Source of the DNA: a bacterium
Lineage (GTDB): Bacteria; Krumholzibacteriota; Krumholzibacteriia; G020349025
DNA: 64,000 nucleotides
NCBI GenBank assembly: GCA_031362565.1
Contig: JANLSU010000121.1
Coordinates: forward strand, 10,072 to 74,071
Direction of reading: 5' to 3'
Each line of letters begins with the position of its first letter. The stretch's first letter is position 1. Under the pieces are notes generated by a model. The model made no database searches. It worked only from the letters and a program-made list of their open reading frames with translations, and was not told where the DNA came from. Of the stretch, positions 24,421 through 48,001 are shown one piece after another. A program made the position numbers and the translations under genes.

Positions 24421-27126
24421 GTGTTACGACTCCAGGCCCTACCCCGGCTCGCGATCCGGCGCCCGGCGCTCGTCACGACCGTCGCCTGCGTGGCCGTACT
24501 GGCCATGGCGCCCGGCATGCGCCGGCTCGAGTTGCGGACTGACGGCCATTCGCTCGTGCCCCCTGGCGACCCCACGGTCCTGTACGACCGGTCCATGCGC
24601 CAGGAATTCGGCGTCACGGATCCTCTCATCGTCCTGATTCATTCTCACGACCGCGACGGCATCTTCAACGACCGCACGTTGCAGCTCGTGCGCGATTTGA
24701 CCCAGAAGGCGATGCAACTTCCTGGCGTCCACGCCCCGGACGTCCTCAGCCTGGCCACCGAAAAGAGTGACCGTTTCCGGGCTGGATCGCTCGAGCACCG
24801 ATCCTTTCTCGAGCCCTTTCCCGCGACTGCCGCCGAACGCTTCGAGCTGCGGGACGACCTGCGGGCGATTCGCCTCTATCAGGGCACGTTGATTTCCGCC
24901 GACGAATCGGCGACCGCCGTCTTCATCGGCGCGCCGGAAGGCGCGGACCGAACGGCTCTGTGCAATGCAGTCGAAGATCTCTGCGCGCCCTACGACTCGC
25001 CACAGGACGAAGTGCGTGTCCTCGGCGCGCCCGTTGTCGAGTCGCGACTCGGGGCCCACATTTTGGCCGACCTCGGCTTGCCGGCGCGCGCCATTCACGC
25101 CCCGCGCGAACAGTCCGGCGCAGCTCCGCCGGCATCATTCGGCGAACTGCAACGTTTCGTCGGCCAGCACGTCGGTCTCTTGCCGCTCGTACTGGCGATC
25201 ATGGCGTTAGTTTTCCTGGTGAGCTATCGCAGTGCGGTGGCGGTGTTGTTGCCGCTCCTCGAAGTCGGAGCGTGTCTGGTCTTCGTCTTCGGCCTGATGG
25301 GTTGGCTCAACGTTCCCGTGTACCTGACGATGGCAGTAATGCCGGTGATCCTCGTTGCCATGGGCGTCACCGACGAAATTCACGTCTTTGCACACTATGC
25401 AGCGCGGCGCCGGCAACAGCCGGAGGAACCCCGTGCCGCCTCGGTCCGCGCGACTCTCGACGAGATTGGGTCGCCGATCATCAAGACGTCGCTCACCACC
25501 GCGCTCGGTTTCTTTTCGTTTGCGTTGTCACCGCTGCCGCCGCTGCAAGCCTTCGGCATCTTTACCGGGCTCGGCATGGTGTTCTGCATGCTCTGGTCGC
25601 TGACGGTGATCCCGGCGTTGCTCGTGCTGTGGGGGCCGCGGCGGGCTGCCGGGCGCGGTGCCGAGGGCGGGCGTCTCGGCGCGGTGCTTGGACGAGTCGC
25701 GCTCGCGGTCGCACGCCATCACCGCGCGGTGCTCGTGGTGCTGCTCTTGGTGCTCGTGGTCCTGCCGTTCGGAATCCGGCGGCTCGTGGTGCAGGACAGT
25801 TGGATCGGTGCCTTCGCGCCCGAGAGCGAGTTATACCAAACGACCCAAGCCTTCAACGCGCAGTTCTTCGGTACCCACACGTTGTACGTGACGGTCGATA
25901 CCGACTCGTTCGTCGTGCGTGGACAATTGCCCCCCGTCGACGTCGATCACCACACGTTGCTCCTGCCGGCCGGCGTTAGCGTCGATCCGGCGCGCCTCGT
26001 TGGCGCCTGGGTGGATGTGCGGCGTCCGGGCACAACCGGGCTCGAGAATCCGCCGCCGCACGGGCCGCTGCGCTGGAACCGGTGGCAGTCCTGGATCGAA
26101 ACCGCGGCGCGCGACGGCGACCGCATCCGGGTCACCATGCCGCTGCGCTCCGGCTCGCCCAAGTTCTTCATCGATCCGCAGCCGGAGGAAAAGCTCGATT
26201 TCGAGATCCGGTCGCAGCGTTTGGAAACGGCGGCGACACTGCGGGAGATTGCCGGACTCGAAACCTTCATACGCGGACGAGTCGACGACACTGTCGGCGG
26301 CGTCCTCGGTCCGCCCGACTACATCGCAACGACGCAATTCATCGTCAAGAGCCGCGACGAAGCGCAACGCACGATCCCGGACGATCCGGAGCGCATCCGC
26401 TGGCTGTGGAGCCAATACGGTCGAGTCCGCGGCACCGAACGGCTGCGCGAGGTCGTGAACCCGCACTACACGCGCGGCCTGGTCGCGGTGTATCTCAAGA
26501 ATGCCAACTACATCGACACCGAGCGCCTCGTCCAGGCCATCCGGACCTACGAGGCCGAACATTTGCATGCCTCCGGCATCCAGCTCGGGTTCGCCGGCGA
26601 CGTGGGCGTCAGTCAAGGCTTCATCAAGGCGATCGTCACCGGGCAACTGCGTTCACTCTTCGGATCCTTGGCCGGCATCCTGGTGATCACGGTGCTGCTG
26701 TCGCGTTCCTGGCGCTGGGGGGCGATCTGTGTCGTGCCGTGCGCCTTCGCGGTGATCCTGTGCTTCGCGGGCATGGGCTGGATCGGCATCCCACTCGGCG
26801 TGGCGACTTCGATGTTCGCGAGCATGGTGTTGGGCGTCGGGGTCGATTACGCGATTCATTTGACCGATCGTTGCCGCACCGAACTGGCGCGCGGTGCGCG
26901 GCGCGATGCCGCAATCGCAGCCGCCGCGCGCGCCGTCGGCCCGGCGATCGTCGTCGACGCAGTGGCCGTGGCGCTCGGATTCGGGGTGCTCACCTTCAGC
27001 CAGGTGCCCGCCAATGCGCGGCTCGGTTTGATGACCGCCCTCTGCATCGCCGGCGCGCTCGTGCTGACGTTTTCTGCCTTGCCAGCGTTAATGGCGGCGG
27101 CTGTCGGGTCCAGGACCAAGAAGTAG
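24421..27126 (+). CDS. MMPL/RND-family transporter
   Basis: Two repeats of TM + periplasmic domain + TM bundle; GVTDEIH and GVGVDYAIH, TSLTTALGF, ALGFGVL. Confidence 0.88.
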   Translation: MLRLQALPRLAIRRPALVTTVACVAVLAMAPGMRRLELRTDGHSLVPPGDPTVLYDRSMRQEFGVTDPLIVLIHSHDRDGIFNDRTLQLVRDLTQKAMQLPGVHAPDVLSLATEKSDRFRAGSLEHRSFLEPFPATAAERFELRDDLRAIRLYQGTLISADESATAVFIGAPEGADRTALCNAVEDLCAPYDSPQDEVRVLGAPVVESRLGAHILADLGLPARAIHAPREQSGAAPPASFGELQRFVGQHVGLLPLVLAIMALVFLVSYRSAVAVLLPLLEVGACLVFVFGLMGWLNVPVYLTMAVMPVILVAMGVTDEIHVFAHYAARRRQQPEEPRAASVRATLDEIGSPIIKTSLTTALGFFSFALSPLPPLQAFGIFTGLGMVFCMLWSLTVIPALLVLWGPRRAAGRGAEGGRLGAVLGRVALAVARHHRAVLVVLLLVLVVLPFGIRRLVVQDSWIGAFAPESELYQTTQAFNAQFFGTHTLYVTVDTDSFVVRGQLPPVDVDHHTLLLPAGVSVDPARLVGAWVDVRRPGTTGLENPPPHGPLRWNRWQSWIETAARDGDRIRVTMPLRSGSPKFFIDPQPEEKLDFEIRSQRLETAATLREIAGLETFIRGRVDDTVGGVLGPPDYIATTQFIVKSRDEAQRTIPDDPERIRWLWSQYGRVRGTERLREVVNPHYTRGLVAVYLKNANYIDTERLVQAIRTYEAEHLHASGIQLGFAGDVGVSQGFIKAIVTGQLRSLFGSLAGILVITVLLSRSWRWGAICVVPCAFAVILCFAGMGWIGIPLGVATSMFASMVLGVGVDYAIHLTDRCRTELARGARRDAAIAAAARAVGPAIVVDAVAVALGFGVLTFSQVPANARLGLMTALCIAGALVLTFSALPALMAAAVGSRTKK

Positions 27127-27171: not shown

Positions 27172-27591
27172 TCACGCGAACGGACGCAGGGCGGCGAGAA
27201 GATCGTCCGGCACCTCGGCCGCGACCATGGCGTTGCCGCTTCGGCGCATGAAGGCGATTTGCTGCTCGCCGCGCGCCACCAACTCTTCGCCGCCGTCGTG
27301 CGACCGCCAGTACTCGAACCGCAGTGTCATGCGATTTTGCGCCAGCGTTCCCAAGCGCATCCGGACATGCACTTGATCGAAGGCTGAAAGCTCTTGCAAG
27401 TAGTCGCACGAACAGCGGGTGGTGACCAGGCAGAGACCCGTTGCGATGTCGTCGAGCACGCTCGGCGCGTGGTCGCGTAAGAACATCTCACGGCAGCGTC
27501 CCTGCCAGCGTACGTGGTTCACGTAGTAGACATTGCCGAGCAGATTGGTTTCCTCGAACCCCACCGTGTGCAGATACTCATACGCCTGCAT
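27172..27591 (-). CDS. tebC: Enediyne hot-dog thioesterase (SgcE10/CalE7/DynE7-like)
   Basis: YEYLHTVGFEETNLLGNVYYVNHVRWQGRCREMFL, ELVARGEQQIA; overlaps the PKSE stop codon. Confidence 0.92.
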   Translation of the reverse strand: MQAYEYLHTVGFEETNLLGNVYYVNHVRWQGRCREMFLRDHAPSVLDDIATGLCLVTTRCSCDYLQELSAFDQVHVRMRLGTLAQNRMTLRFEYWRSHDGGEELVARGEQQIAFMRRSGNAMVAAEVPDDLLAALRPFA

Positions 27592-30500
27592 GGCGCCCCC
27601 CGGCGAATACTGCGAACGCCAGCCGCTCCGCCGCCGGCTGGAGCACCCCGACGAAGGTCGTGATCAACGCATCGCCCGCCGCCAGCATCACCCAGCCGTC
27701 GGTGGTGGTCGAGCGTAGAAGGATTGGCGTTTCGGAGGCAACACCCGCCTTCTTCAGGCATTCGATCACCGTCCAAACCCGCGTCAGCGAATCCGCGAGA
27801 TTCTCGCCCGACTCGCGCGCGACCTGCACGGCGAGTGCGTAGCGTTGCGCGCCGAGCAACCCGTGCCACTCGTCAGAGGGGCGCTCGACAACGGGTTCGA
27901 CGTCGCAGCCGAGCGTCCCCGCACCGGCGACAGCCAGCATCAGCGCTCCCGCGTGTGATACCGAGACCGTGAGATCCGGCTCCGACGGAAGTTCCGGCTT
28001 ACCGTCGGGACGATGTACCACGGAGGAACGCCGCGCCAACGCCACTTCGAAAGCCCGTGCCGGGTCGTCGCTCCCAGCGGCGCCGTCCCGTTGTAGCGCC
28101 ACACCGATGGTAAGACCGGGAACGAGGTCATCGAGCCGGCGCTGCAAGTAGGGTGCGAGCAATGGCGCACTCCACGCCTTCGGTGCCTTCGTTGGCCCCA
28201 CGGCGCGGAGCGTAAGGCCGCTCCAATGCTCGAGCACAGCGCCATCGGGCGTGGTGATTTCGAGATCGTAGATGAACGTGTCACCGTCACGGTGGCGCTC
28301 CCGAGCCCGCACCGCGAACGCCTGGCCGCTGGGCAGCCGGTTGATTTCGAGGCGCTCGATGGCAATCGGCAGCAGGGTGCGATGCGGGATGCAAGCCTGG
28401 AGGGCGTGAATTGCGGCGTCGCGCGCCCCGGGATCGCCGAGCACCAGGGACGCCGGCAGGTAGGTCCCGAACCATGCTGTCGCCCCGTCCGCGGAGATTT
28501 CGGCCAGGCATTCGGTGGCCCGCAACCAACGGTAGCCACTGACGCGACGGAACCGCCCGTCTTGGAACAACACCGAACCATAGAGATCGGCTTCGGGTTC
28601 GAAGGCAAGCCGGCCGTCGACGAGGCTATCGCCCGCGAGCGCAACTCGACTGGGAGTTTCACCCGGGACTGCATTGAACCGGCAGCGGGCACGGAAGTGA
28701 TCGACTTGGAACTGGGTGCGCGACGCGCGCAGGGCCACGTCGACAACACCCGGCTCGCGCACCAGGGCCGCGACGCGGATGGTCTCGGTGCCATCGCGCG
28801 GCACGACGATGGGGCGCGCGAACTCCACGGCTTCGAACACCGGCGGCGTTGTAGCGCCGGTAATCGCCATTGCGGCTTCGGCCATCGCTTCGAGCCCCAG
28901 GACCGCCGGGAAGAGCGGGTCGCCGGCCAGAGTGTGATCCGCGAGATACGGGTCCGAGTCGCGCGACAACTCGACATCCACTACGAGTTCGATGCCGGGG
29001 TACAGCACGCGCGGTTGTTCGAGAAAGCGCCAGAGCGGCAAGCGCGCCGCTTCGAGTTTCAACGTCGCTTGCACGCCGAAGCGACCGGCCACCAGGATCG
29101 ATGGATCCGGAAGGTCCGTGTCGATCAGGCGGCCGAGCCACTGCACGCCAACGTCGACCGGGATCGGCGTGATGCCATCACGCACGAGGGCTTCCAACCG
29201 GCCGAGCCGCTCGCCCATTCCAGCGCCGGACCACACGGACCATTCGATCGTCAAGCAGCGGCACGCGGGGTGGTCCGCCTGAAAACGCCGCACCCAACCT
29301 GCAAGCCACTCGTTCGCGGCCGCGTAGTCGGCTTCGCCGCGCATTCCGGTGCGCGCGATGATCGAACCGAAAGCCACGAACAGTTTGAGCCGCGACGCAT
29401 CGACCGCGGCGGCAAGATTCCGCGCGCCGGCGAGCTTCGGTGCCGCGGTGGCGAGAAAATCCGCCGCGTCGAGCGCACTGAGCGGCCGTGGGATGTTGGT
29501 TCCGGCGCCGTGCAGCACACCGGTCACGGGTCCGAGCGCTGCTTCGATCTCGCCGACCGCATCGCGCAAGCGCTCGGCCGCGGCAACGTCGGCGACGGCG
29601 TAGTGGAACCGCACGCCGCTGGCGCGGAAGCGTTCGAGATTTTGCGCCAGCACCGAATCGGTATCCGGATGGGCGCGACCCACGAGGCCGAGCCGCACGC
29701 TGTACTTCCGGGCGAGCCCCAGCGCGCACTCGGCCGCGATCCCCTTGCCGCCACCGGTCACGAGCAGCACGTCGTCGGGGCCGAGCGCTAAGGGCGCGTG
29801 CAACAACGGCCCTCCAGGAGCGAGGACGGGTTCGCGTCGAATTCCATCGCGGCCATAGGCCACGGCGCGGAAACCTGACGCGGCTTGCGCTTCATCCGCC
29901 ACCCAAGCTGCGACACGAGGATCATCGCGCGGCACGTCGACGATGCAGGTGGCTGTTTCCGGCGATTCGAGATGCAGCGAGCGCGCGAACCCGCCGCCAC
30001 CGCCGTCGCATTGCACGACGACGAAGCACCCGGTCGTGCGACGCGGCCAAAGTGCGCGCGCGGCTTCGAGAAGCAACGTTGCACAGCGCTCGTCGGGTTC
30101 GGGCGGCAGAATCACGATGACACCCTCGCCGCTACTCTTGGCGCCGAGCGCCCGCTCGATCGCACCTGCGAGTGGATCGCCTGGCGACGCGAATACGCTC
30201 CATACGCCATGCGTACTGGCCGGTGCGTTGCCGGGCCCGGGACAATCCAGCCACCGGGTCACGAACGGCCGCACCCATGCATCGACGCCGGCCGGAACCG
30301 CGGGCGCGGCCAAAGCCGTGCCGGTGCCGTGTGTCGCGCTCAACTCTTCGAGCGCCCGCGCCAGTTCACCGACGGTGGCGCCGGCGTACGCAGTAGGATC
30401 AGCGGGTGGCGGCAACCCGAGGCGCGTCGCCGCTTCGACGGCCACCTGACCAACGACGATCGAATTCAGATGCAGATCGCCGAGGAGCCGATGTTGATCG

Positions 30501-33424
30501 CTCACGGATTCGACCGGCAATTCGATCCGTTCGGCGACGAGGCGCCGTACGAGTTCCAACGTCCCGGCGGGCTTGCCCGCCGGTTGCGGTTTCGGTTCCG
30601 GTTTCGCCCCGGCGCGTATGGCGTCGGCTGTCGTGGACGCCCCTTCTTCATCCGGCAGCGGTGCCTGCTCGCACGGATTGGCGAGAAATCGCCGCTGCCG
30701 ATCGAGGTCGAACGGTTTGACGAAGCGCGTCGCGAAAAGCGCCTCGTGCTGCAGTGCGCTTCCGAGTGCCCACGCTGCTCCGGCCGCGTTCAGCAATCCG
30801 ACCAACGATTCACTCGCCGCATCGAGGGCGATGACGGGCGTCGCCGTCTGCCCAGAGGCGAGGGTGCGAAGGGTTTGGCCGGGCCCGACCTCGAGCCACA
30901 GATCCACCTCGGAATCCGCGGCCTGCAACGCGGCGCTGAAACGCACCGGTGCGGTGACTTGGCGCAGCAGAAGTGCGGCGAGATCGGCCGCGGCTTCGAG
31001 TTCCCCGCCGGTCACGGTCGAAAACACCCGCCGCTGGATCGCACCCAAAGGCGCCGCCGCCAAGTGCGCCGCGAGCGCCGGGACGGCTGCTGCGACGAGT
31101 GGCGAGTGGAAGGCACGAGTGACCGGCAGGCGCACCGCAGCGACACCGGCGGCGCGCGCCAGCGCGATGACCGCTTCGACCGCGCTCGCGTCTCCGGCGA
31201 TTACGGTTTGGTTCGGGGCGTTCAACCCCGCAACGACGACATCGCCACCGGCAATCAACCGTTCGGCCGCCGGTGCATCGGTTGCGAGGCTGGCCATTGC
31301 ACCGGGGCTGCCGAGTTCGCCCATCGCGCCGCCGCGCGCCGCCGCCAACCGCACGAGCGCCGGCGCATCGAACGCGCCCGCCCAGTGATATGCCGTCAAC
31401 TCACCGAGACTGTGACCAATTGCGACATCGGCCGCGAGTCCGAGAGCGGCGAGGGTCTGAAGGCCGGAAAGCGACGCGGTCACGATCGCCGGCTGCGCCA
31501 CGGCGGTCTGGTGCGGATCGGCATCGCGCTTGATCACCGTGTTGTCGTAGAGAGCACGCACGGATTCGAAGCGCCGGCGCCACAAACCGCCGTCCAGATG
31601 GGCGGGCGAACCCTGCCCGGTGAACAAATAGCCAAGGCGCGGCGCGCTCTCGCCGGTATCGAAGTACACGCCGCGGCGCACGTCGAGCATCGGCGGCGCG
31701 CCGGCGGCCAACGATGATTCCAGCGCGGCGAGACGCGATTCGAGCCCGTCCGGCGTGCCCGCTACGACGGCGGCCCGGCAGCGCGGCCGCTTTCGCAGCA
31801 GTCGCGCCAGCGCTGCCGCCAAGTCGCCGAGTTCGGCGAATGAGATTCGACTCGCCGCGCGTCGCGTTCGTTCGACGGCCTCGCGCAATAACTCCACGGT
31901 CTCGGCGCCGAAGAGGAACAGCTCGCAATCTTGATAGGTGCTCGCGAGAGCGCGCGCCTCGCCATCGAGATCGCCGCCTCCGGGTGTGCCGGCGCCCTCC
32001 AACGTGAGATGCGTGTCGATGCCCCCGAAGCCCATCGCACTGACCGCAGCCCGCAACGGTTTTCCCGCCGGCCAGGGTTCGGCGTCGCGCAGCACCCGCA
32101 CACAAGCGCCGGTGAGTGACGGATGGGCGTCGAAACAGCCGGTCGTGGGCGGGCGAATCTGGTTGTGGACCGCCAACGTCGCCTTGATCAATCCCGCGAT
32201 GCCGGCGGCGGCTTTGGTGTGGCCGATGTTGGCCTTGACGGAGCCGAGCGCCGCCGGCTCAGCGGCGGGATCGGCTTCGCGCCGCGCCCGCGACAAGACC
32301 TCCAGCTCGACCGCATCGCCGACCGTCGTGCCCGTGCCATGCCCTTCGAAGTAGACGACGCTGTCCGGGCCATAGCCGGCGCGCCGGTAAGCGCGGCGCA
32401 CGGCCAGGAGTTGGCCTTCCACTTCGGGGCGCGTGATGCCGCCGCTGCCATCCGAAGCCACGCCCCAGCCGCGCACGACCGCATACACGCGCAAACCACG
32501 TGCGAGTGCATCGGCGTGCCGCATCAAGACCACGAACCCGCAACCTTCGCCCGGCCAGAAACCGGCCGAGCGCGCGTCATAGACACGCATGAGTTCGGGT
32601 GCGAGGGCGCCAAGGCGGGAGAAGCCCACCAACTCGAACGGATCGAGGCTCAAATCCACACCGCCGGCGAGCGCCACATCGAGGTCGCCGGCGACGAGCG
32701 ACGAGCACGCGGTGGTGACAGCCAAGAGCGAACTGGCGCAGGCGCCGTCCACCGTATAGCCGCCACCCTTCAAGTCGAACTGATTGCAAATGCGCCCGGC
32801 GATGGTGTTCGAGAGTCCACCCGCCAGCGTCTCGTCGCCGACTTCGGGAAACGGCGCCTTGAACGTCACCTCGAGTTCGGACAGAAACTCGTGGCGCTCT
32901 TCGAGTGGCTGGCCGCGTTCACGCAGCGCCGCATCCACCATGCGGCGCACGTAGGGCCAGCGGAGCCGCAGGGTGCTGGCGCGCGAGAACTCGCCGGTGA
33001 GCGAATTGCCGAGAACGACTCCCGTTGATTCGCGCGGTAAGTGCGCCGGATCGGCGAAGCCCGCGTCGACGAATGCCCGCGACGCCACGTCGAGCGCCAG
33101 CCAGTGAGCCGTGTCGGCGGCACGAAATGCTGGACCCGCGATCCGAAAGCGGGCGCGATCAAACTCCCAGCCTTCGATGACTGCCACATAGGGTGTGGAG
33201 ATCGAATCGGTACCGGTGCGATCGCCGGGCGCGTAATCCTCGAACCGCAAACGCTCTGGCGGCACGCGCCGGAAGGCTCGACGCTGCGCCAGCACGTTGC
33301 GCCACAATTCGTCCGGTGAGCGCGCGTCCGGATAGCAGCACGCCATGCCGACGATAGCGATGTCACTCGGGCTCGTCATGGCGTTCGCATCGGAATGCCC
33401 ATTCGTCATGCCGCGCTCGCTCAT
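27578..33424 (-). CDS. pksE: Iterative type I enediyne polyketide synthase, KS-AT-ACP-KR-DH-PPTase
   Basis: KS TVDGACASS, EGHGTGT, IGHTKAAAG; AT GHSLG and RAFHS; ACP DLHLNSIVVGQ; KR TGGGKGI and YAAAN; DH DHTLAGDPLFPAV and DPGARDAAIH; PPTase VSH, GCDVE, WTVIECLKK. This domain order is diagnostic of PKSE. Confidence 0.95.
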   Translation of the reverse strand: MSERGMTNGHSDANAMTSPSDIAIVGMACCYPDARSPDELWRNVLAQRRAFRRVPPERLRFEDYAPGDRTGTDSISTPYVAVIEGWEFDRARFRIAGPAFRAADTAHWLALDVASRAFVDAGFADPAHLPRESTGVVLGNSLTGEFSRASTLRLRWPYVRRMVDAALRERGQPLEERHEFLSELEVTFKAPFPEVGDETLAGGLSNTIAGRICNQFDLKGGGYTVDGACASSLLAVTTACSSLVAGDLDVALAGGVDLSLDPFELVGFSRLGALAPELMRVYDARSAGFWPGEGCGFVVLMRHADALARGLRVYAVVRGWGVASDGSGGITRPEVEGQLLAVRRAYRRAGYGPDSVVYFEGHGTGTTVGDAVELEVLSRARREADPAAEPAALGSVKANIGHTKAAAGIAGLIKATLAVHNQIRPPTTGCFDAHPSLTGACVRVLRDAEPWPAGKPLRAAVSAMGFGGIDTHLTLEGAGTPGGGDLDGEARALASTYQDCELFLFGAETVELLREAVERTRRAASRISFAELGDLAAALARLLRKRPRCRAAVVAGTPDGLESRLAALESSLAAGAPPMLDVRRGVYFDTGESAPRLGYLFTGQGSPAHLDGGLWRRRFESVRALYDNTVIKRDADPHQTAVAQPAIVTASLSGLQTLAALGLAADVAIGHSLGELTAYHWAGAFDAPALVRLAAARGGAMGELGSPGAMASLATDAPAAERLIAGGDVVVAGLNAPNQTVIAGDASAVEAVIALARAAGVAAVRLPVTRAFHSPLVAAAVPALAAHLAAAPLGAIQRRVFSTVTGGELEAAADLAALLLRQVTAPVRFSAALQAADSEVDLWLEVGPGQTLRTLASGQTATPVIALDAASESLVGLLNAAGAAWALGSALQHEALFATRFVKPFDLDRQRRFLANPCEQAPLPDEEGASTTADAIRAGAKPEPKPQPAGKPAGTLELVRRLVAERIELPVESVSDQHRLLGDLHLNSIVVGQVAVEAATRLGLPPPADPTAYAGATVGELARALEELSATHGTGTALAAPAVPAGVDAWVRPFVTRWLDCPGPGNAPASTHGVWSVFASPGDPLAGAIERALGAKSSGEGVIVILPPEPDERCATLLLEAARALWPRRTTGCFVVVQCDGGGGGFARSLHLESPETATCIVDVPRDDPRVAAWVADEAQAASGFRAVAYGRDGIRREPVLAPGGPLLHAPLALGPDDVLLVTGGGKGIAAECALGLARKYSVRLGLVGRAHPDTDSVLAQNLERFRASGVRFHYAVADVAAAERLRDAVGEIEAALGPVTGVLHGAGTNIPRPLSALDAADFLATAAPKLAGARNLAAAVDASRLKLFVAFGSIIARTGMRGEADYAAANEWLAGWVRRFQADHPACRCLTIEWSVWSGAGMGERLGRLEALVRDGITPIPVDVGVQWLGRLIDTDLPDPSILVAGRFGVQATLKLEAARLPLWRFLEQPRVLYPGIELVVDVELSRDSDPYLADHTLAGDPLFPAVLGLEAMAEAAMAITGATTPPVFEAVEFARPIVVPRDGTETIRVAALVREPGVVDVALRASRTQFQVDHFRARCRFNAVPGETPSRVALAGDSLVDGRLAFEPEADLYGSVLFQDGRFRRVSGYRWLRATECLAEISADGATAWFGTYLPASLVLGDPGARDAAIHALQACIPHRTLLPIAIERLEINRLPSGQAFAVRARERHRDGDTFIYDLEITTPDGAVLEHWSGLTLRAVGPTKAPKAWSAPLLAPYLQRRLDDLVPGLTIGVALQRDGAAGSDDPARAFEVALARRSSVVHRPDGKPELPSEPDLTVSVSHAGALMLAVAGAGTLGCDVEPVVERPSDEWHGLLGAQRYALAVQVARESGENLADSLTRVWTVIECLKKAGVASETPILLRSTTTDGWVMLAAGDALITTFVGVLQPAAERLAFAVFAGGRHAGV

Positions 33425-34392
33425 GACTGCACCGCCACTGGCGCGAATCGCATTCGCAGCCGCCCGCGCCACGCCTCGTACGCCGGTTCGCTGCCATCGG
33501 GCGGTAGATCCCGGAAGGCTTCGTCGGTGCATTGCGCCGCCGCTTTGGCGCCCAGACCACACAACGTAAGACACGCCCGTTCGGTGTGCGGCGTCGCGTT
33601 CCCGGCGCGCTCGCGCGCTTGGGCCGCGAACGCCGCGCCCTGGGCCAGGGCCGAGCGATGTTCGCCGGCGGCGCGACGCAAATTCTCCAGCGCTGCGTCA
33701 TCCGCCCCACCCGCGTACGCGGCCGCGAGCCCCACTCCGCTCCACAGGTCGGCGTGCCGCGCGGCATCGAAACGTTCGATCGATGCCGTGACCCCGGCGA
33801 CCCCGGCGCACTCCACGAACCACAGGGCGCGGCCCAGCCCTTGATCCCACGCGCGCCGCTGGTAGCCGGCAACGATGCGCGCCGGCACCACATGCTGCTC
33901 GATGCAGCGCCGGGCACTGAAATACCCATCGTGGAAGCCCCAGCCGTCGAGCACGAGCCAGCGCAACCGCTGGTCCATACGCCGGGTGGCGCGCTCGAAC
34001 GAACGGCCGGCCCGAGCCATCGCCCAGCCGGCGCCGATATGAACCATGTATGCGTGCCGGCTGCCGGCGCCGGCGAGGAACGTCTGCCATCGGTCGCGCC
34101 GCCAGGGCAGCAGCGTATCGAGCAGCAGGAGCGCCATGCCCGCCCCTTCATAGGCGAAGCCGCGCCGCTCGGGCTCGACGGCCTCGAGCCGCGCCACGAG
34201 TTGCTCGCTCGGTCCCGTTTCGAGCCCGGCGTGGTACCCGGCGACGAAGGTCGCGCCGATCGTTTCGAAGCGCTGCCGCGCCACCGGGTCGCCGCCGCGG
34301 AAGCCGCGCCGCTCGAACCGGGTCGCATCGGGGGAAATGCCGAAAAGGATCCGTTGGAGCTTGCCCAAGTGAAGCGACCCTTCGCGCTGCAT
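33421..34392 (-). CDS. unbL: DUF1702 enediyne biosynthesis protein (UnbL/E3-like)
   Basis: RGFAYEGAGM, HAYMVHIGAGWA, LVLDGWGFHDGYF, DQGLGRALWF, DLWSGVGLAAAYAGG; ATGA-coupled to pksE. Confidence 0.88.
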   Translation of the reverse strand: MQREGSLHLGKLQRILFGISPDATRFERRGFRGGDPVARQRFETIGATFVAGYHAGLETGPSEQLVARLEAVEPERRGFAYEGAGMALLLLDTLLPWRRDRWQTFLAGAGSRHAYMVHIGAGWAMARAGRSFERATRRMDQRLRWLVLDGWGFHDGYFSARRCIEQHVVPARIVAGYQRRAWDQGLGRALWFVECAGVAGVTASIERFDAARHADLWSGVGLAAAYAGGADDAALENLRRAAGEHRSALAQGAAFAAQARERAGNATPHTERACLTLCGLGAKAAAQCTDEAFRDLPPDGSEPAYEAWRGRLRMRFAPVAVQS

Positions 34393-34591
34393 GTCAGCCA
34401 CAGATTTCGACGACGGTCCTGGCGAGTCGACCTGGAACGCGGGGCGCCGGAGCGCGAATCCGAGCGGCCTTGGGAGAGCGAAGCCGGGCACGGAATCGAG
34501 CCATCCTCGACACGACGACTATCGCGAGGCGGTGTGTTCCTGTAGAGTTTCTGCCTGTCCGCGAGCCCCGTCAAGCGTCTTGGAGCCCACC

Positions 34592-36583
34592 TTGTCACCC
34601 TTCGTCCGCGTGGCCGTAATGCTACTTGCGCTCACCGCTGGGTCGATCTGGCTGCGCCCGCATGCTTCTGCGGCGCTTGACCCAGGCGTGCGGTTCGAAG
34701 AAATCGCCACCCGGGCGGGATGCAGCCACTTGCACTCCCCGGTCGAGTTGTCACCGCGCTTCGCCAACATCATGCCTTGGCTCGTATCGGTGGGCGCGGC
34801 GGTGGCCGGGGCCGATTTCGACGGCGACGGGCGCACGGATTTTTACTGCACCAACTCCGGGCGCGGCCAGCCGAACGCGCTCTACCGCAACCGCGGCGAT
34901 GGAACCTTCGAGGACGTGGCGGCGCCGGCCGGCGTGGCCTGCGGCAATCCCGAGGGTGGGTGCGTGCACGCCGTCTTCGGCGACATCGACAACGACGGCG
35001 ACGCGGATCTGTTCGTGGCCAAGTGGGGCGAGGCCAATCAGCTCTTCCTGAATCGCGGTGACGGCACCTTCAGCGATGACACGGGGCGTGCCGGTGTCGG
35101 CGGGTGGGGCTATGCGAACGCCGCGACGTTCGTCGATTACGACCGCGATGGATGGCTCGATTTGCTGGTCGGGAACTACTTCGCCGATTCGCTGGCGGAC
35201 GCCAGCACCGGCAAGATGCAGCGTTCGAATTTGTGGGATCCGGTGACGACGCGCGTCATGCACAACACGTTCACTCACGCCGACAACGGCGGACGCACGC
35301 TGCTCTACCACAATCTGGGCAATGGCCACTTCACAGACGTCGCGGTCGAGTGCGGATTGCTTTTCCGCGGCTGGACCCTCGCAGCCGGCGCCGCCGATCT
35401 CAACAACGACGGCTGGCCCGATCTCTACCTTGCGAACGATTTCGGCCCGGACGAGCTGTATCTGAACACCGGCGCCACCGAGAATCCGCCGCGCTTCGAG
35501 CGTGTCGTCGATACGTCGGGGCATCCCGGCATCGGCGATGACTGGTGGAAAGGGATGAACGTCGATTTTGGCGACGTCGACGGCAATGGTTTCCTCGATG
35601 TCTACGTCACCAACATCCTCGCACGCCGCTACAAGACCGACGAAGGCAACATGCTGTGGCTGAACCTCGCCGACCCGAAGGGGGGCCCCGGTGGACGAAG
35701 CTTCTGGAACGCGGCGCGAGCGAGCGGCGCAGACGACGGCGGCTGGGGCTGGGGAGCCAAGTTCCTCGATGCGAACAACGACGGCTTGCTCGACATCTTC
35801 GCGTTGAACGGTTTCGTGAGCGGCGATCCCGAACACACCTATTGGTACGACCTGCAGGAGATGGTGACGCAAACCAAGAATAACGCCGCCGACACCGCCG
35901 ACTGGCCGCCGATGGGAAATCGCGATCTCTCGGGGTACGAACCGAGCCGCTTGTTCGTGCAGCTCGCGGACGGAGAGGACGCGGCACGCGAGGTCGCGGG
36001 TGAGCAGGGCGGCGCGCGGCACGTTCCACACTTCGCCGAAGTTGCCGCCGCAGCCGGCATCACCGATGTGCTGAACGGCAGAGGCGTGGCGGTGAACGAC
36101 TTCGATGCCGACGGGGCACTCGATTTGTTCGTAGCCAACCAGAGCGCACCTTCGTTGCTCTATCACAGTCTCTTGAAGACCGGCGGACCCGGCCGGCATT
36201 GGCTCGGGTTGTCTTTGGCGGGCCGGCCAGACGAACCCAACACGGTCGATGGACGGCGTTTCGCTTCGACGGCGAGCGCCGTGGGAACGCGCGTCGAAGT
36301 GACGGTGGGACCTCGCTGTTTGGTGCAGGAAGTCAGCGGCGGCACGGGCTTCGCTTCGCAGAGCGAGTTGCGGTTGCATTTCGGCCTTGGCACGGTCGAT
36401 CGACCCGAGCGAATGGTTGTGAGGTGGCCAAGCGGGCGAGTGCAGACCTTCGAGGGCCCAGCCGTCGCGGCGTGCGTCGATGGCTATGCGCGCCTGGTCG
36501 AAGGCACTCCACTCGAGCCCGGCCAGGGTGCGAGTGCGGCAGCAAAGGGAATGCCGGCCGCGACGCGGGGAGACACGCCATGA
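34592..36583 (+). CDS. unbV: CRTAC1/ASPIC-UnbV FG-GAP repeat protein (E4-like)
   Basis: Signal peptide, repeated D(F/Y/L)DxDGxxD motifs, ANDFGPD, KGMNVDFGD, GWGWGAKF, C-terminal GGTGFASQSELRLHFGLG...VRWP. Confidence 0.9.
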   Translation: MSPFVRVAVMLLALTAGSIWLRPHASAALDPGVRFEEIATRAGCSHLHSPVELSPRFANIMPWLVSVGAAVAGADFDGDGRTDFYCTNSGRGQPNALYRNRGDGTFEDVAAPAGVACGNPEGGCVHAVFGDIDNDGDADLFVAKWGEANQLFLNRGDGTFSDDTGRAGVGGWGYANAATFVDYDRDGWLDLLVGNYFADSLADASTGKMQRSNLWDPVTTRVMHNTFTHADNGGRTLLYHNLGNGHFTDVAVECGLLFRGWTLAAGAADLNNDGWPDLYLANDFGPDELYLNTGATENPPRFERVVDTSGHPGIGDDWWKGMNVDFGDVDGNGFLDVYVTNILARRYKTDEGNMLWLNLADPKGGPGGRSFWNAARASGADDGGWGWGAKFLDANNDGLLDIFALNGFVSGDPEHTYWYDLQEMVTQTKNNAADTADWPPMGNRDLSGYEPSRLFVQLADGEDAAREVAGEQGGARHVPHFAEVAAAAGITDVLNGRGVAVNDFDADGALDLFVANQSAPSLLYHSLLKTGGPGRHWLGLSLAGRPDEPNTVDGRRFASTASAVGTRVEVTVGPRCLVQEVSGGTGFASQSELRLHFGLGTVDRPERMVVRWPSGRVQTFEGPAVAACVDGYARLVEGTPLEPGQGASAAAKGMPAATRGDTP

Positions 36584-37635
36584 GTGCGAGCGAACCCGCG
36601 GCGGAGCCGGTGCGCCGCGCGCGGCGGCGCAACTTGACGTTGTTCGCCGCCGGTGCGGCGATCTTCGCAGTGATCACCGTGATTGCGGTGCGCCGCGGCG
36701 GCCTCCTCGACCTTCCCGCGGCGCCACCCGGCGTCACCGCCGAAAGCGCCGGGCTCGCGAACCTGAACGAACTCACGACGCGCGGTCGCGCGCTCGAGGC
36801 ACTCGCGAGCGGGCAGCGCTCCGACGGCACGCCTGCCGATTCCGCCCTCGTCCAAACAGCGGCCGGTCTCGCCGCGATCCGGCGCGACGATTCGGAACAT
36901 GGACTGGCGATGATGCGCACCGGCCTCGGTCTCGCGCCGTGTGATCTCGTTCTCGGCAATGGGTACCGCATGGCGGTATTGCAGCTGCGGCGCGCCAATC
37001 TCGCCGGCGCGGCGCGGCGCCAGACGCTCGCCGGGCAGATGCCCGCGTGGCTCGAACACGAACCCATCGCAACGCTCGAGCGGCTCCACGCCGAACACCC
37101 CTGCCGCGAAACAGCCCTGCAACTCGCGCTTGCGTGGGTGGACGAGTTGATCCTTTTCGGTGCGCTCGAGATCAAGGCGCCGGCAAACGTCGAATCGGTG
37201 CACCAGCTGACCGAGTTGCTGCGTCAAGAGCCCATGTATGTGCCGGCGCTCTTCGGCCGTGGACTGAATTACTTGAATCGGCCGGCCCGCCTCTTGTGGC
37301 GCGAAGGCATCAAGACCGCACCCGACGCCGCAAGTCACGACCTGGGCCTATGTGTCGCGATCGGCCGCCGCGTCGGCGGTGCGCCGCCGCAACTCGTCGC
37401 GACACTCGCCCTGGCGCTCGGCGATGCGTTCGCGAAAGAGGGCCACCCCGAGCGCGCACGCTCTTGGTGGCAGATCGCCGGCAATACGTCCCGCGATCCC
37501 GCGCTCACCGATTCGATCCGGCGGCGTTTCGGCTGGCGTGACGACGAAGTGCTCGATCGCCTCGAGACCGAGCTGGCGAGCCGCATGCTCGACCTCGATC
37601 ACCCGCTCTCCGATCTTTCGTTCATGTGGCGCTGA
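36580..37635 (+). CDS. Hypothetical membrane-anchored helical (TPR-like) protein
   Basis: ATGA-coupled to unbV; N-terminal TM segment; 'ALFGRGLNYL' and 'LALGDAFAKEGHPERARSWW' resemble TPR helices. Confidence 0.65.
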   Translation: MSASEPAAEPVRRARRRNLTLFAAGAAIFAVITVIAVRRGGLLDLPAAPPGVTAESAGLANLNELTTRGRALEALASGQRSDGTPADSALVQTAAGLAAIRRDDSEHGLAMMRTGLGLAPCDLVLGNGYRMAVLQLRRANLAGAARRQTLAGQMPAWLEHEPIATLERLHAEHPCRETALQLALAWVDELILFGALEIKAPANVESVHQLTELLRQEPMYVPALFGRGLNYLNRPARLLWREGIKTAPDAASHDLGLCVAIGRRVGGAPPQLVATLALALGDAFAKEGHPERARSWWQIAGNTSRDPALTDSIRRRFGWRDDEVLDRLETELASRMLDLDHPLSDLSFMWR

Positions 37636-37661
37636 GGAGGCACACCCTGCACGAGCGACCA

Positions 37662-38513
37662 GTGAAGATCGTTGTCCCGACCCTGCGCGACCCACGCATC
37701 ATGTTGGCGTTGGCGCTCACGACCTGGACGATCCTCGGGCAGACCATGCTCTACTTCAACCGCGACCTGCTGCAGATCGGCGTCGCGCTCGGTTCGGCGT
37801 GTGTCGTCGATATGCTGCTGGCGTTCGTGTTCCAACGCCAGGTGCTGGTGCCGATCAGCGCCTACATTACCGGCCTATCGCTCGGCATTCTGATCGCGAG
37901 CAATGACTGGCGGGTGTATTTTCTGGCTTCGGCCTGGGGTGTGGCGTCGAAGTACTTCCTCCGCGCCGGCAACCGCCACTTCTTCAACCCATCCAACTTC
38001 GGCATCGTCGCTTCGGTGGTGCTCTTGCGCAACATCGCCACCGTTGCACCCGGCTCACAGTGGGGCGGCGAGTGGCGCGTCGCACTTCTCATCCTGGCAC
38101 TCGGACTGACCATGATGCGACGCGTGAAGCGCCTGCACTTGGTGCTGGCCTGGCTCGGCGGTTATCTCATGATGAGCATGCTCAGGGTCGCACTTGGCCA
38201 AGGTGGGCTCGTGTTCGCGCTCGGTCCCATGACCGGTGCCGAGTTCGCGCTCTTTACTTTTTCGATGCTCCCGGATCCCAAGACCAGTCCGCCGACCTCG
38301 GGTGCCTGCATCGTCTGGGGCCTCTTGATCGCCGTGCTGGACGGCGTGTTGCGTTACTTCGAAATTCGATACTCCATGTTCTACGCGCTCTTCGCCTTCT
38401 GCGCGCTCCTGCCGCTGTTCCGTTTGGCGGCAGCGGCGCGCGGCGCCAACGAGACCGACCCGTGGCGTGTCGCGGTGCGAGTGCTTGGCAAACGGTCCGA
38501 GCCGGCGCGTTGA
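37662..38513 (+). CDS. unbU: UnbU/E5-like membrane protein (RnfD-like fold)
   Basis: Polytopic; RHFFNPSNFGI, PMTGAEFALFTFSMLPDPKTSP; position in the PKSE cassette. Confidence 0.82.
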   Translation: MKIVVPTLRDPRIMLALALTTWTILGQTMLYFNRDLLQIGVALGSACVVDMLLAFVFQRQVLVPISAYITGLSLGILIASNDWRVYFLASAWGVASKYFLRAGNRHFFNPSNFGIVASVVLLRNIATVAPGSQWGGEWRVALLILALGLTMMRRVKRLHLVLAWLGGYLMMSMLRVALGQGGLVFALGPMTGAEFALFTFSMLPDPKTSPPTSGACIVWGLLIAVLDGVLRYFEIRYSMFYALFAFCALLPLFRLAAAARGANETDPWRVAVRVLGKRSEPAR

Positions 38514-38582: not shown

Positions 38583-39560
38583 ATGCGGATTCCACTCGAC
38601 GCCATTCGTGAAGCGGCCGAACGCACGGCAGCGTACCTGCACCGCACGCCGATGCTCTCATCGCGCAGTTTGGGTGAGCGCGCCGGGGTGCGTCTCGATC
38701 TCAAGTGTGAGAGCTTTCAGAAAACCGGTTCGTTCAAGCCGCGCGGCGCGCTCAACGTGGTGTTGTCGCTGCCGGCGGAGCGGCGGTCGCGCGGTCTCGT
38801 GACGGTGTCGGCCGGCAATCACGCCCAAGCCGTGGCATGGGCGGCGCGCGTCGTGGGCGTGCCGTGCACCGTCGTCATGCCGGCGGATGCACCGCGCTCC
38901 AAGATGGACGCCGTTCGCGGCTACGGCGCGACGATCGTGACCCACGCCGATCGCGCCACGCTTTTCGACCGGCTGCGCGAGGAAGAAGCCCGTAGCGGTG
39001 CGACATTCGTGCATCCGTTCGACGACCCGGTGGGACTCGCGGGCGCCGGCACGGTGGGTCTCGAGATCGTCGCGCAAATGCCCGATGTCGAGTGTGTGGT
39101 GGTGCCGATCGGCGGCGGCGGACTCATGGCCGGCGTCACTTGCGCCATCAAAGCGCTGCTGCCGCAGTGCCGCGTGGTGGGCGTCGAACTCGCGGCCGGA
39201 CCCGGTATGACGCCGGCGCTCGCGGCCGGCAAACCGGTGCCCGTCACCCGGTTGCCAACCCTCGCGGATGGATTGACGCCGCCCTTCGTGGGCACTCTGC
39301 CGTTCGAAGTCGCGCAGCGGGCGCTGGACGATCTCGTACTCGTGACGGAGGAAGAAATCATGGAGGCCATGCGTCTGCTCCTCGTTCGCGCCAAACTTTT
39401 TGTCGAGGGTGCCGGTGCCGCGGCCACGGCGGCCTTGCTGGCCGGCAAGGTACGGGGGCCCGAGGGCGCCAGAGTCGTAGCGATCGTCTCGGGCGGCAAC
39501 GTGGATCCCGAGCGCGCTCTCGCATTGTTTGGGCATGGCGCCAAGGAGGCGGGGGCGTGA
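38583..39560 (+). CDS. PLP-dependent serine/threonine dehydratase-family protein
   Basis: LKCESFQKTGSFKPRGA, SAGNHAQAVA, VHPFDD, PIGGGGL, SGGN. Confidence 0.9.
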   Translation: MRIPLDAIREAAERTAAYLHRTPMLSSRSLGERAGVRLDLKCESFQKTGSFKPRGALNVVLSLPAERRSRGLVTVSAGNHAQAVAWAARVVGVPCTVVMPADAPRSKMDAVRGYGATIVTHADRATLFDRLREEEARSGATFVHPFDDPVGLAGAGTVGLEIVAQMPDVECVVVPIGGGGLMAGVTCAIKALLPQCRVVGVELAAGPGMTPALAAGKPVPVTRLPTLADGLTPPFVGTLPFEVAQRALDDLVLVTEEEIMEAMRLLLVRAKLFVEGAGAAATAALLAGKVRGPEGARVVAIVSGGNVDPERALALFGHGAKEAGA

Positions 39561-40561
39561 AAGTTCTCTTCGTCAACGAGGCGGGCGTCCACGAACTGTT
39601 GACGATGCAAGCCTGCATTCCGCTCATGCACAACACGCTGGTCGCACTCGCGAACGACAACGTCGTGTTGCCGCTCCGCACCAAAGTCCGACTGCCGGAC
39701 GGCTCCGGTATTTTGGGTCTCATGCCCGGGTACCTAGGCGCACCGGAAAGCTTCGGCCTCAAGGTGGTGTCGGTGATGCCCGGCAACCATGGCACGCCCT
39801 ACGACTCACACCAGGGCGTTGTCCTGTTGTTCGGAGTCAAGCACGGCGAGCCTTTGGCGATCCTCGACGCGACAGCGATTACAGCGATCCGCACCGCCGC
39901 GGCGTCGGCTGCGGCGACGCAGGCCCTGGCCCGCCCGGAGGCCGGCGATCTGGCGCTCTTGGGATCGGGCGCTCAGGCGCGGACGCACCTCGCAGCGATG
40001 CAATGCGTGCGCACGCTGCGCCGGGTGCGGGTGTGGAGCCGGAGCCGGGCGAACGCCGAGCGCTTCGCGCGGGAAGAGGGCGAACGCCGCGGGCTTGCGA
40101 TCGAGGTCGCGGCGAGTGCCGCCGAGGCATTGCACGGTGCGGATCTCGTCTGCACGACGACCGCGGCGCGCGAACCGATTCTGCGCGGCGAGTGGCTCGC
40201 GCCGGGCACGCATGTGAACGCCGTCGGCGCCTGCTTCTCGAACAGCCGCGAACTCGATACGGAAGCCGTTCGGCGGGCGCGCTTCTTTACCGATTGTCGC
40301 GAGTCGTGCTTGAACGAATCCGGTGATTTCTTGCTCGCCCGCGCCGAGGGCGCCATCGATGACGCGCATCTCTTAGGTGACCTGGGCGAAGTGTTTCTCG
40401 GCAAAGTTCCGGGGCGCGTGTCGCGCGACGACGTCACGATCTTCGAATCCTTGGGCGTCGCAATCGAGGACCTCGCCGCGGCGCACTTCATTCATCGGCG
40501 CGCGGTCGAGACCGGCGGCGGCACCTGGCTCGAATGGGGCGGCCCGCCGGGCAGCGCATGA
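39557..40561 (+). CDS. Ornithine cyclodeaminase/mu-crystallin family protein (ketimine reductase-like)
   Basis: GLKVVSVMPGN, ITAIRTAAAS, GSGAQA, HVNAVGA, FESLGVAIEDL. Confidence 0.92.
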   Translation: MKVLFVNEAGVHELLTMQACIPLMHNTLVALANDNVVLPLRTKVRLPDGSGILGLMPGYLGAPESFGLKVVSVMPGNHGTPYDSHQGVVLLFGVKHGEPLAILDATAITAIRTAAASAAATQALARPEAGDLALLGSGAQARTHLAAMQCVRTLRRVRVWSRSRANAERFAREEGERRGLAIEVAASAAEALHGADLVCTTTAAREPILRGEWLAPGTHVNAVGACFSNSRELDTEAVRRARFFTDCRESCLNESGDFLLARAEGAIDDAHLLGDLGEVFLGKVPGRVSRDDVTIFESLGVAIEDLAAAHFIHRRAVETGGGTWLEWGGPPGSA

Positions 40562-41568
40562 CGTCCAACACGCCGTACGCGCTTCTGACGCCTTCGCTGG
40601 CGGACATTCAGGCGGCGCGGCAGCGCATCGCGGGTATGGCGTTGCGAACCCCATTGATTCGGCTCGCGCCGCAGGCCGGCGAGCCGGAAATCTGGCTCAA
40701 GCTCGAGACACTGCAGCCCATCGGTTCTTTCAAGATTCGTGGCGCCGCGAGCGCTTTGGGTCTCGTGCCGCGCGCCGACTTGGCGCGCGGCGTGTACACG
40801 GCGAGCGCCGGCAATATGGCGCAGGGTGTCGCGTGGTGGGCGCGCGAAACCGGCGTACCGTGCACGGTCATCGTTCCCGACACCGCACCCGCCGCCAAGC
40901 TCGATGCCATCACGCGCCTCGGCGCGCGGCTCGTGCCGGTGCCATTCGAACGCTGGTGGCAAGTTCTGGTCGAACGCCGCTACGACGGGTTGGAAGGTTA
41001 TTTCGCCCACCCCGTGAGCGACCCGGCGGTTATCGCCGGCAACGCCACCATCGGACTCGAAATCTTGGAAGACTTGCCGCATGTCGCGAGCGTCTACGTG
41101 CCGTTCGGCGGCGGCGGATTGTCGTGCGGTATTGCAGCTGCGCTCCGCGCTTCACGGTCCGGCGCACCGACCTTTGCCTGCGAAGTCGAAACCGCCGCAC
41201 CACTCGTCGCCGCACTCGCGACCGGCGCGCCGTGCGCCATCGACTACCAACCGAGTTTCGTCGACGGAATCGGCGGCCGGAGTGTGCTGCACGAAATGTG
41301 GCCGTTGGCGTCAACGCTTCTCGCCGGCAGTTGTGTCGTCAGCCGCGATGAAATCGCCGCCGCAATTCGCAGCCTCGTCGCGCGCGCCCGCACCGTGGCC
41401 GAAGGCGCTGGAGCCGCTGCGCTCGCCGCCGCGCTTACCGGACGCCCGGCCGCCGGCGCCATGGGCGCCACAGTCACGCGCCCCGATGGCCCCATCGTCT
41501 GTGTCGTCTCCGGCGGCAACTTGGACCCCGCCAAGCTCGCAGCCGTGCTCGAAGGCCGCGTGCCCTGA
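40558..41568 (+). CDS. Second serine/threonine dehydratase-family PLP enzyme
   Basis: LKLETLQPIGSFKIRGA, SAGNMAQGVA, PFGGGGL, VSGGNLD. Confidence 0.9.
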   Translation: MTSNTPYALLTPSLADIQAARQRIAGMALRTPLIRLAPQAGEPEIWLKLETLQPIGSFKIRGAASALGLVPRADLARGVYTASAGNMAQGVAWWARETGVPCTVIVPDTAPAAKLDAITRLGARLVPVPFERWWQVLVERRYDGLEGYFAHPVSDPAVIAGNATIGLEILEDLPHVASVYVPFGGGGLSCGIAAALRASRSGAPTFACEVETAAPLVAALATGAPCAIDYQPSFVDGIGGRSVLHEMWPLASTLLAGSCVVSRDEIAAAIRSLVARARTVAEGAGAAALAAALTGRPAAGAMGATVTRPDGPIVCVVSGGNLDPAKLAAVLEGRVP

Positions 41569-47988: not shown

Positions 47989-48001
47989 CGCGAGATGCCT
48001 C

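Follow-up and report, generated by a model that had tools for sequence, protein, structure and literature searches.

A rearranged six-gene enediyne-type polyketide synthase locus beside a predicted lipid exporter in a non-actinomycete bacterium

The 64,000-nt window analyzed here (the whole stretch of DNA, ~65% GC, from contig JANLSU010000121.1) carries a locus built around an enediyne-type polyketide synthase (PKSE). On balance, we favor the view that this is a functional locus of a non-actinomycete PKSE branch which, in a rearranged six-gene form beside a lipid exporter, makes an exported, undecorated linear polyene or polyyne. The five genes of the enediyne cassette (E3, E4, E5, PKSE and a thioesterase, TE) define all enediyne antitumor antibiotics. 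The initial annotation had described a complete cassette of these five genes, and all five were recovered in place by the list of open reading frames (ORFs) and by a Pfam scan of 51 window ORFs; a sixth gene, located between E4 and E5, had been overlooked.

Architecture of the locus

On the minus strand, E3 (UnbL, DUF1702; 33421..34491, 356 aa; Pfam E 4.3e-111) lies directly upstream of the PKSE gene (27578..33409), from which it is separated by an 11-nt spacer. The PKSE is a type I polyketide synthase of the iterative kind, 1943 aa long according to the public gene call (P0001), and its stop overlaps by 14 nt the start of the gene for an E10-type hot-dog thioesterase of the CalE7/DynE7/SgcE10 family (27172..27591, 139 aa). 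On the plus strand, E4 (UnbV; 34391..36583) is followed by the sixth gene (36580..37635, 351 aa), which we call UNK and which encodes an anchored TPR-like protein, and by E5 (UnbU; 37626..38513), a polytopic membrane protein of 295 aa with an RnfD/NqrB fold. The E4 stop overlaps the start of the sixth gene by 4 nt; between the stop of the sixth gene and the start of E5 the overlap is 10 nt. A gene for a 901-aa inner-membrane protein, predicted by Pfam and NCBIfam to be a lipid exporter of the MMPL/RND type (HAE3/HpnN-like; 24421..27126, +), converges on the TE gene, and the two ends are 45 nt apart. This layout is that of two divergent and, to judge from the start/stop overlaps, translationally coupled operons, E3-PKSE-TE and E4-TPR-E5. 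The canonical colinear order E3-E4-E5-E-E10, in which E is the PKSE and E10 the TE, is not found in the window. A regulatory scan detected no sigma-70-like promoter, and terminator-like sites were rarer than in shuffled sequences.

The synthase and the thioesterase

Pfam recovered the PKSE domains in the order ketosynthase (KS), acyltransferase (AT), PP-binding (the acyl carrier protein domain, ACP), ketoreductase (KR) and dehydratase (DH), and the AT region matched the DynE8 AT structure 4amn (E 2.1e-59). In an alignment of 27 sequences, comprising the window PKSE and 26 homologs, the catalytic residues were invariant and all were present in the window protein: KS C224, H357 and H397; AT S667; ACP S983; KR GGGKGIA, S1349, Y1362 and N1366; and the DH motif H1492xxxGxxxxP. 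The claim that all catalytic motifs are intact in the order KS-AT-ACP-KR-DH thus held. The phosphopantetheinyl transferase (PPTase) domain, which had been placed at the end of the same series, gave no Pfam match in the PKSE even at E ≤ 10. The C-terminus is nevertheless PPTase-like in its invariant motifs GCD1836-x-E1838 and W1879xxxE1883xxxK1887; a profile of 34 PKSE C-termini searched against the PDB had Sfp (1qr0) as its top, weak match (E 0.23), and in this match the motifs align to the GIDIE and WSMKE motifs of Sfp. This part of the claim is accordingly carried by the motifs and that profile match.

The TE matched PF13279 (4HBT_2; E 1.4e-13) and, among proteins of known structure, the SgcE10-like "ACP-polyene thioesterase" 4i4j (E 3.6e-43), CalE7 (2w3x, E 2.7e-42) and DynE7 (E 1.2e-37). 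Asn16 and Arg34, which align to Asn19 and Arg37 of CalE7, are retained. The residue aligned to CalE7 Tyr29 is a histidine. Of 64 TE loci, 52 have His at this position, 11 have Tyr and one has Phe, and all 10 actinomycete TEs have Tyr. In CalE7, Tyr29 was reportedly proposed to assist decarboxylation (Kotaka 2009). The Tyr-to-His exchange may change what the TE releases, for instance to a product that has not undergone decarboxylation.

Relatives and phylogeny

Among 8000 candidates scored, 4627 were PKSE matches. The best non-self matches were 68, 66, 60 and 59% identical to the window PKSE, and hundreds more lay at 53-57%, including proteins from metagenome-assembled genomes (MAGs) of Acidobacteriota, Planctomycetota, Verrucomicrobiota and Chloroflexota. 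Many matches carry the name "enediyne polyketide synthase" given by JGI; others come from MAGs of Gemmataceae, Acidobacteriota, Pyrinomonadaceae, Blastocatellia, Verrucomicrobiae and Pirellulales.

A FastTree phylogeny was built from 110 KS-AT rows, from which three loci (L005, L007 and L010) had been dropped because their matches were too short. It was rooted on an Acanthopleuribacter polyketide synthase (L021) that is 30% identical and sits on a long branch, actinomycete loci served as stand-ins for the characterized PKSEs, and the FastTree supports quoted here are optimistic. The 10 actinomycete rows formed one clade (support 99). The window PKSE fell in a separate clade of eight rows (99), together with P0002, P0003/L022, P0004, P0036, L055 and L056, and this clade was nested in a group of 98 non-actinomycete rows (93). 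Grouping of the synthase outside the PKSE clade, which the initial annotation had named as an outcome that would count against it, was not observed: the window protein lies inside the PKSE family and outside its actinomycete sub-clade.

Gene order was compared by tblastn with the window proteins across 20 genome loci and the best 80 of 553 confirmed metagenome stretches; loci are designated with the prefix L. E5 lies next to the PKSE gene, the usual colinear order, in 69 of 87 non-actinomycete or metagenome loci and in 11 of 12 named actinomycete loci. E3 directly upstream of the PKSE gene, as in the window, was found in 12 of the 87 and in 1 of the 12. In L026, L063 and L074 the sixth gene stands between E4 and E5; in L056 it adjoins E4. 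The order is E4-UNK-E5-..-PKSE-TE in L026 and E3-PKSE-TE-E4-UNK-E5 in both L063 and L074. L055 and L056, which have identical KS-AT sequences, jointly give the layout of the window, with UNK and E4 reading away from E3, PKSE, TE and the MMPL gene (UNK<-E4, E3->PKSE->TE->MMPL). The split architecture with the sixth gene is repeated on several metagenome contigs.

Two features of other loci were noted in passing. In L063 (20201-21927) and L074 (13596-15249), genes for an AraC regulator and an NADPH-dependent FMN reductase come after E5; the reductase resembles the flavin reductase of actinomycete clusters. In L003 (17507-27054), a Verrucomicrobiia locus, a duplicated module past the PKSE gene consists of a thioesterase, an AraC regulator and a protein of ~640 aa, the two copies of which are 49% identical and lie on either side of an MMPL gene.

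E3, E4, E5 and the sixth gene

E3 showed no hydrophobic or transmembrane-like segment in a hydropathy analysis. Its true start may be further in than annotated, because the DUF1702 domain begins at residue 42. Identity to the E3 proteins of other loci ranged from 37 to 62%. E4 combines FG-GAP beta-propeller repeats (FG-GAP_3, E 5.4e-43) with an ASPIC/UnbV domain (UnbV_ASPIC, E 1.1e-19). The long ORF contains a signal-like hydrophobic segment at residues 63-89, and the real start is likely near 34619, at an alternative Met ahead of this segment. E4 is 41-68% identical to the proteins of loci with the variant arrangement and 27-36% identical to those of canonical loci; for E4 and E5 together the ranges are 37-68% and 26-36%. 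Seven proteins of the host genome contain a UnbV_ASPIC domain, of which one is the cassette E4. No second copy of E3, E5 or the sixth gene was found in the genome.

E5 was assigned by Pfam to NQR2_RnfD_RnfE (E 1.1e-8; 35.3 bits against a cut-off of 27.7), and it is 26-36% identical to the gene product at the E5 position of canonical loci, actinomycetes included. In a Foldseek search with the AF2 model (pLDDT 86), all 15 matches at E ≤ 1e-3 were RnfD or NqrB, with TM scores of 0.58-0.67. The motif [ST]GA[TS], which we take to be the covalent-FMN threonine motif of RnfD/NqrB, was present in none of 35 E5 sequences.

The sixth protein belongs to no Pfam or NCBIfam family, and none of the cassette proteins scored above an NCBIfam cut-off. 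Its AF2 model (pLDDT 90) has one N-terminal membrane helix followed by an all-helical, TPR-like repeat domain, and its structural matches were generic TPR proteins only. Sequence searches recovered 190 homologs at E ≤ 1e-3, ~340-350 aa in length, free of Pfam matches except for a few to TPR_2 and labeled Binataceae, Phycisphaerae or Planctomycetes; three of them are on contigs equal in size to contigs of PKSE matches. A full HMMER search of 1.84 billion representatives gave 158 clusters at E ≤ 1e-3, 80 at E ≤ 1e-10 and 25 at E ≤ 1e-30. Because of these homologs, some of them on contigs of the size of PKSE-match contigs, UNK is on sequence evidence a real protein family. A 1106-aa protein with TPR and FG-GAP parts, encoded divergently from E3-PKSE-TE in L028 (5141-8458, -), was considered as a fusion of the sixth protein and rejected, as its TPR part is unrelated (hhalign probability 0.3%).

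A predicted exporter of the lipid-handling type

The initial annotation had recorded no resistance gene and had not weighed the exporter gene adjacent to the TE. The encoded protein matched the Pfam families MMPL (two stretches, E 3.3e-31, 108.9 bits against a cut-off of 20.5), Patched SSD and Sterol-sensing. Its NCBIfam scores were 215 bits for HAE3 (TIGR00921), below the cut-off of 351.9, and 118 bits for HpnN-like models, far below their cut-offs. Recurrence was counted in the non-actinomycete loci that contain a TE and at least 5 kb of downstream sequence (n = 33), an MMPL homolog anywhere in the locus being accepted. Such a homolog was present in 23 of these 33 loci vs none of nine named actinomycete loci; as many of the loci are near-copies, the count after de-replication at 80% KS-AT identity was 9 of 17 clusters. 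In the host phylum, 57 of 208 genomes have a match to the window MMPL protein at E ≤ 1e-10, and all but two of these matches are at most 35% identical.

Upstream of the MMPL gene are two tandem genes for secreted paralogs of 257 and 245 aa (22607..24223, -), the product of a tandem duplication of ~879 nt. The paralogs are 80% identical and end in STWGNVKNLYQH, a tail of the form TWGxVKxLY. Their pairing with the MMPL gene recurs in a genome of the same family, G006 (paralogs 57-61%, pair 48-61% identity), and a homolog adjoins E3-PKSE-TE-MMPL on the metagenome contig L055 (66-70% identity). Whether these paralogs are members of the pathway is uncertain.

The type of exporter bears on an alternative that we regard as unlikely but worth weighing, namely that the product is a polyene or polyyne lipid or pigment that stays in the envelope, brought by the MMPL protein to the outer membrane and protective there, for example against oxidants or light, and not a secreted antibiotic. 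Hopanoids are carried by HpnN and aryl polyenes by an MMPL-type exporter. The window exporter is of the lipid-handling MMPL/HpnN/sterol-sensing type and not of the drug-efflux type, it recurs beside non-actinomycete cassettes, and three of the six cassette proteins are predicted to be membrane- or periplasm-directed. However, neither an acyltransferase nor a LolA-like carrier or lipid-anchoring gene is among the window ORFs scanned, the comparison with the export of aryl polyenes and hopanoids is one of analogy, and polyynes are typically reactive and toxic, which fits an antibiotic.

Tailoring genes in the window and in the genome

No P450, glycosyltransferase, methyltransferase, apoprotein or other tailoring domain was detected by Pfam in the 51 window ORFs, in agreement with the initial annotation, which had recognized no P450, sugar-pathway or apoprotein gene in the ~25 kb on either side. 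The search was extended to the host genome, since tailoring genes situated elsewhere would have altered the reading. P450 gave no matches in this 5.4-Mb, 100%-complete genome, whereas the same search was positive in 8 of 14 genomes as a control. When 93 ORFs flanking the PKSE gene in six actinomycete loci were used as queries, matches on the cassette contig (C14) were to cassette genes only, and elsewhere in the genome three generic ORFs were found. Tailoring genes outside the window were thus not found with the P450 and 93-ORF queries. The neocarzinostatin apoprotein family also gave no matches, but its search control was silent everywhere, so this result is uninformative. With no genes found for cyclization, oxidation or glycosylation, for an apoprotein or for other tailoring, the product is most likely undecorated and linear, and not a finished 9- or 10-membered enediyne; the linear polyene or polyyne proposed by the initial annotation is still the most economical reading.

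We consider it improbable that the end product is a true enediyne warhead with a 9- or 10-membered ring, cyclized by the cassette proteins themselves or by unrecognized genes. In favor of it, the five genes by which every known enediyne cluster is defined are all here in intact form, and the exporter could provide self-protection. Moreover, the five-gene cassette is reported to give iodinated polyene/polyyne intermediates common to all enediynes (Gui et al. 2024). Against this stand the genome without a P450, the contig without a homolog of the non-cassette ORFs from the six actinomycete loci, the His of the TE where 10 of 10 actinomycete TEs have Tyr, and the position of the PKSE outside the actinomycete clade; all 11 MIBiG enediyne KS domains fall in an Actinobacteria-associated lineage according to a 2023 survey (PMC10308959).

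Host genome and provenance

The host genome is a draft of 5.41 Mb in 133 contigs, estimated at 100% completeness and 1.85% contamination. Among the 120 best matches to its YebC, the organism-labeled ones were Eiseniibacteriota (80%), Thermodesulfobacteriota (79%) and Binatia (77%), and the host phylum is probably Eisenbacteria. The suggestion that the host lies outside the actinomycetes is borne out by this match and by the placement in a phylum with 208 species genomes. The public runs are labeled freshwater sediment metagenome.

The composition of C14 is typical of the genome (rank 7 of 75; GC 0.653 vs 0.653). Logan contigs, which derive from a second assembler, bridge both MMPL/TE and E5/PALP1-OCD-PALP2 (the operon following E5, described below) at an even depth of 11-18; the bridging run may be the source sample, and two further runs yielded short, low-depth pieces only. 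As far as composition and assembly can tell, the locus is a real part of the host genome. No integrase, transposase, tRNA or flanking repeats mark an island around the cassette. Upstream synteny with genomes of the same family was not found; only the OCD-PALP2 pair is conserved. Either an ancient acquisition or retention in a rare lineage would account for the presence of the locus.

These data weigh on two further explanations. It appears very unlikely that the cassette came by horizontal transfer and is a silent or decaying passenger from which nothing is made in this host. Within the phylum, DUF1702 was found in one genome of 208 (one of 125 when only high-quality genomes are counted); the GC of the cassette, 0.676, ranks in the top 5.3% of 876 genome windows and its tetranucleotide distance in the top 6.7%; and the AraC regulator of several other loci is absent here. 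This compositional deviation is mild, however, and it is accompanied by none of the mobility markers listed above; all ORFs are open, the catalytic residues are intact and the start/stop overlaps are kept. In addition, long-term selection is suggested by L055 and L056, a second lineage in which architecture and neighbors are the same (46-70% identity). A misbinned or chimeric contig, with the cassette foreign to the organism, is hardly credible: the cassette is unique in the phylum and the genome is a 133-contig draft with some contamination, but in GC and tetranucleotides C14 is like the rest of the genome, the flanks carry the lineage-typical FlgD_ig tails, the TWGxVKxLY tail and OCD-PALP2 (54-60% orthologs), and Logan contigs cross both cassette borders at flat depth.

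Other genes in the window

A coupled operon of PALP, ornithine-cyclodeaminase-like (OCD) and PALP genes (38583..41568, +) starts 70 nt past E5. OCD and PALP2 have orthologs of 54-60% identity in three genomes of the same family, where PALP1 has no separate counterpart. A reading of this operon as SbnA/SbnB was rejected, the scores being far below the cut-offs of those models and the other NCBIfam scores below theirs, and so was membership in the pathway: the operon is absent in every related locus and was counted as a neighbor. Three secreted proteins with a C-terminal FlgD_ig domain, resembling a T9SS tail, are encoded at 41681..44791 and 55375..57156 (+). Part of the first of these is shared with the ~640-aa proteins beside PKSE cassettes of other phyla (L003, L046, L053, L066, L089 and L090). 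Between them, at 44821..50630 (-), is a block of genes for an ECF sigma factor, a Ser/Thr kinase with DUF4384 and a TPR-CHAT protein.

Discussion

In the pathway that we favor, synthesis and release would take place in the cytoplasm, together with the soluble E3. The PKSE would prime its own carrier domain via the PPTase-like C-terminal domain and iteratively build a conjugated polyene, which the CalE7-type thioesterase would free; in characterized systems this is a C15 heptaene, and one report describes 1,3,5,7,9,11,13-pentadecaheptaene as the product of PKSE and thioesterase (PMC9992847). E3 and a membrane- and periplasm-facing set, made up of the RnfD/NqrB-fold E5, the anchored TPR protein and the exported propeller protein E4, may then process the polyene toward a polyyne-type product. 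The localization of E4, UNK and E5 is predicted from AF2 models and hydropathy. Finally, the MMPL pump would take the hydrophobic product out of the inner membrane.

Several points weigh against this reading. The absence of tailoring genes is judged from Pfam domains and from the flanks of uncharacterized actinomycete loci, the PPTase assignment draws on motifs and the profile match at E 0.23, and the roles given to E3, E4 and E5 draw on what Gui et al. 2024 reportedly found. The link to the MMPL exporter is an enrichment and is not universal, as the homolog is absent in 10 of the 33 roomy loci and 8 of the 17 clusters. G006, of the same family as the host, has an MMPL protein 49% identical to that of the window with the same secreted-protein neighbor, and no DUF1702 or PKSE gene was found in it; this genome is 71% complete, and its 4.6-kb contig breaks inside the MMPL gene. 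An AraC regulator is often present in other loci, and an FMN reductase in two; neither is in the window. Our literature search found no chemistry or expression work on this locus, nor on a PKSE cassette of any other non-actinomycete.

The cassette kind itself is already known, and the initial description of an undescribed system has to be narrowed accordingly. Such cassettes outside the actinomycetes have been in print since 2011, when an enediyne-type locus of Herpetosiphon aurantiacus (Haur_00919-00937) was ascribed to transfer (PMC3368417). A 2015 review lists 57 producers, of which 50 are actinomycetales and 7 are others, and flags "cassette only" loci (PMC4480864); in the 2023 survey, 160 of 210 enediyne KS domains from metagenomes were linked to non-actinobacterial phyla (PMC10308959). 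They are also common in metagenomes, as our own match counts indicate. It is the host and the six-gene arrangement that are unusual. We found no description of the six-gene variant, the exporter statistics, the Tyr-to-His exchange of the TE or the presence of the cassette in a single one of 208 genomes of the phylum in the literature, although key papers or their supplements may cover them, and a search listing gave no mention of Eisenbacteria with such a cassette.

The function of E3, E4 and E5 is only beginning to be understood. The present locus of ~14 kb contains an exporter and six genes; because it is compact and self-contained, with no tailoring genes found and a host free of P450, it is a clean candidate for learning which compound the cassette alone yields in a cell of the Gram-negative type. 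Testable handles on how the non-actinomycete branch differs are provided by the TPR-like gene, which is conserved, by the recurrence of the MMPL exporter and by the Tyr-to-His exchange of the TE across the clade. More speculatively, the non-actinomycete cassettes might in general be two-stage, envelope-directed pathways and not warhead factories, in which the PKSE, a His-type TE and E3 make a polyene in the cytoplasm, the E5/TPR/E4 trio finishes it, and the MMPL protein places the product in or beyond the outer membrane. If this tentative idea is true, the window is a minimal natural example.

Comparison with known systems

At the level of single proteins, the window E5 is like RnfD/NqrB in that its fold superposes and its Pfam family score exceeds the cut-off. 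It differs in being shorter and, as do the other E5 sequences, in lacking the presumed covalent-FMN motif, and no other Rnf or Nqr subunit, whether of Rnf or of Na+-NQR, is encoded near it. The exporter shares the MMPL, Patched SSD and sterol-sensing domains of the MMPL/HpnN-type RND exporters (HpnN, MmpL and the aryl-polyene type) and sits beside a lipid-like polyketide pathway, whereas its scores are below every NCBIfam cut-off.

At the level of the whole locus, the closest characterized system is the minimal cassette of actinomycetes (C-1027 SgcE, CalE8/CalE7 and DynE8/DynE7), with which the window shares the five families, E3/E4/E5/E/E10 or UnbL/UnbV/UnbU/PKSE/TEBC, as well as the order of the PKSE domains and their catalytic residues. 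Compared with ten named actinomycete loci, the TE is 48-57% and the PKSE 40-49% identical. The window differs in its division into two divergent operons, in the TPR-like gene added between E4 and E5, in the separate clade of its PKSE, in the His at the CalE7 Tyr29 position of its TE, in the presence of an MMPL exporter instead of tailoring and resistance genes, and in its non-actinomycete host. With the non-actinobacterial PKSE loci, namely that of Herpetosiphon, the clades of PMC10308959 and the entries of PMC4480864, it shares the PKSE branch; those loci are mostly colinear, whereas the window belongs to the minority in which E3 lies next to the PKSE gene and a sixth gene is present.

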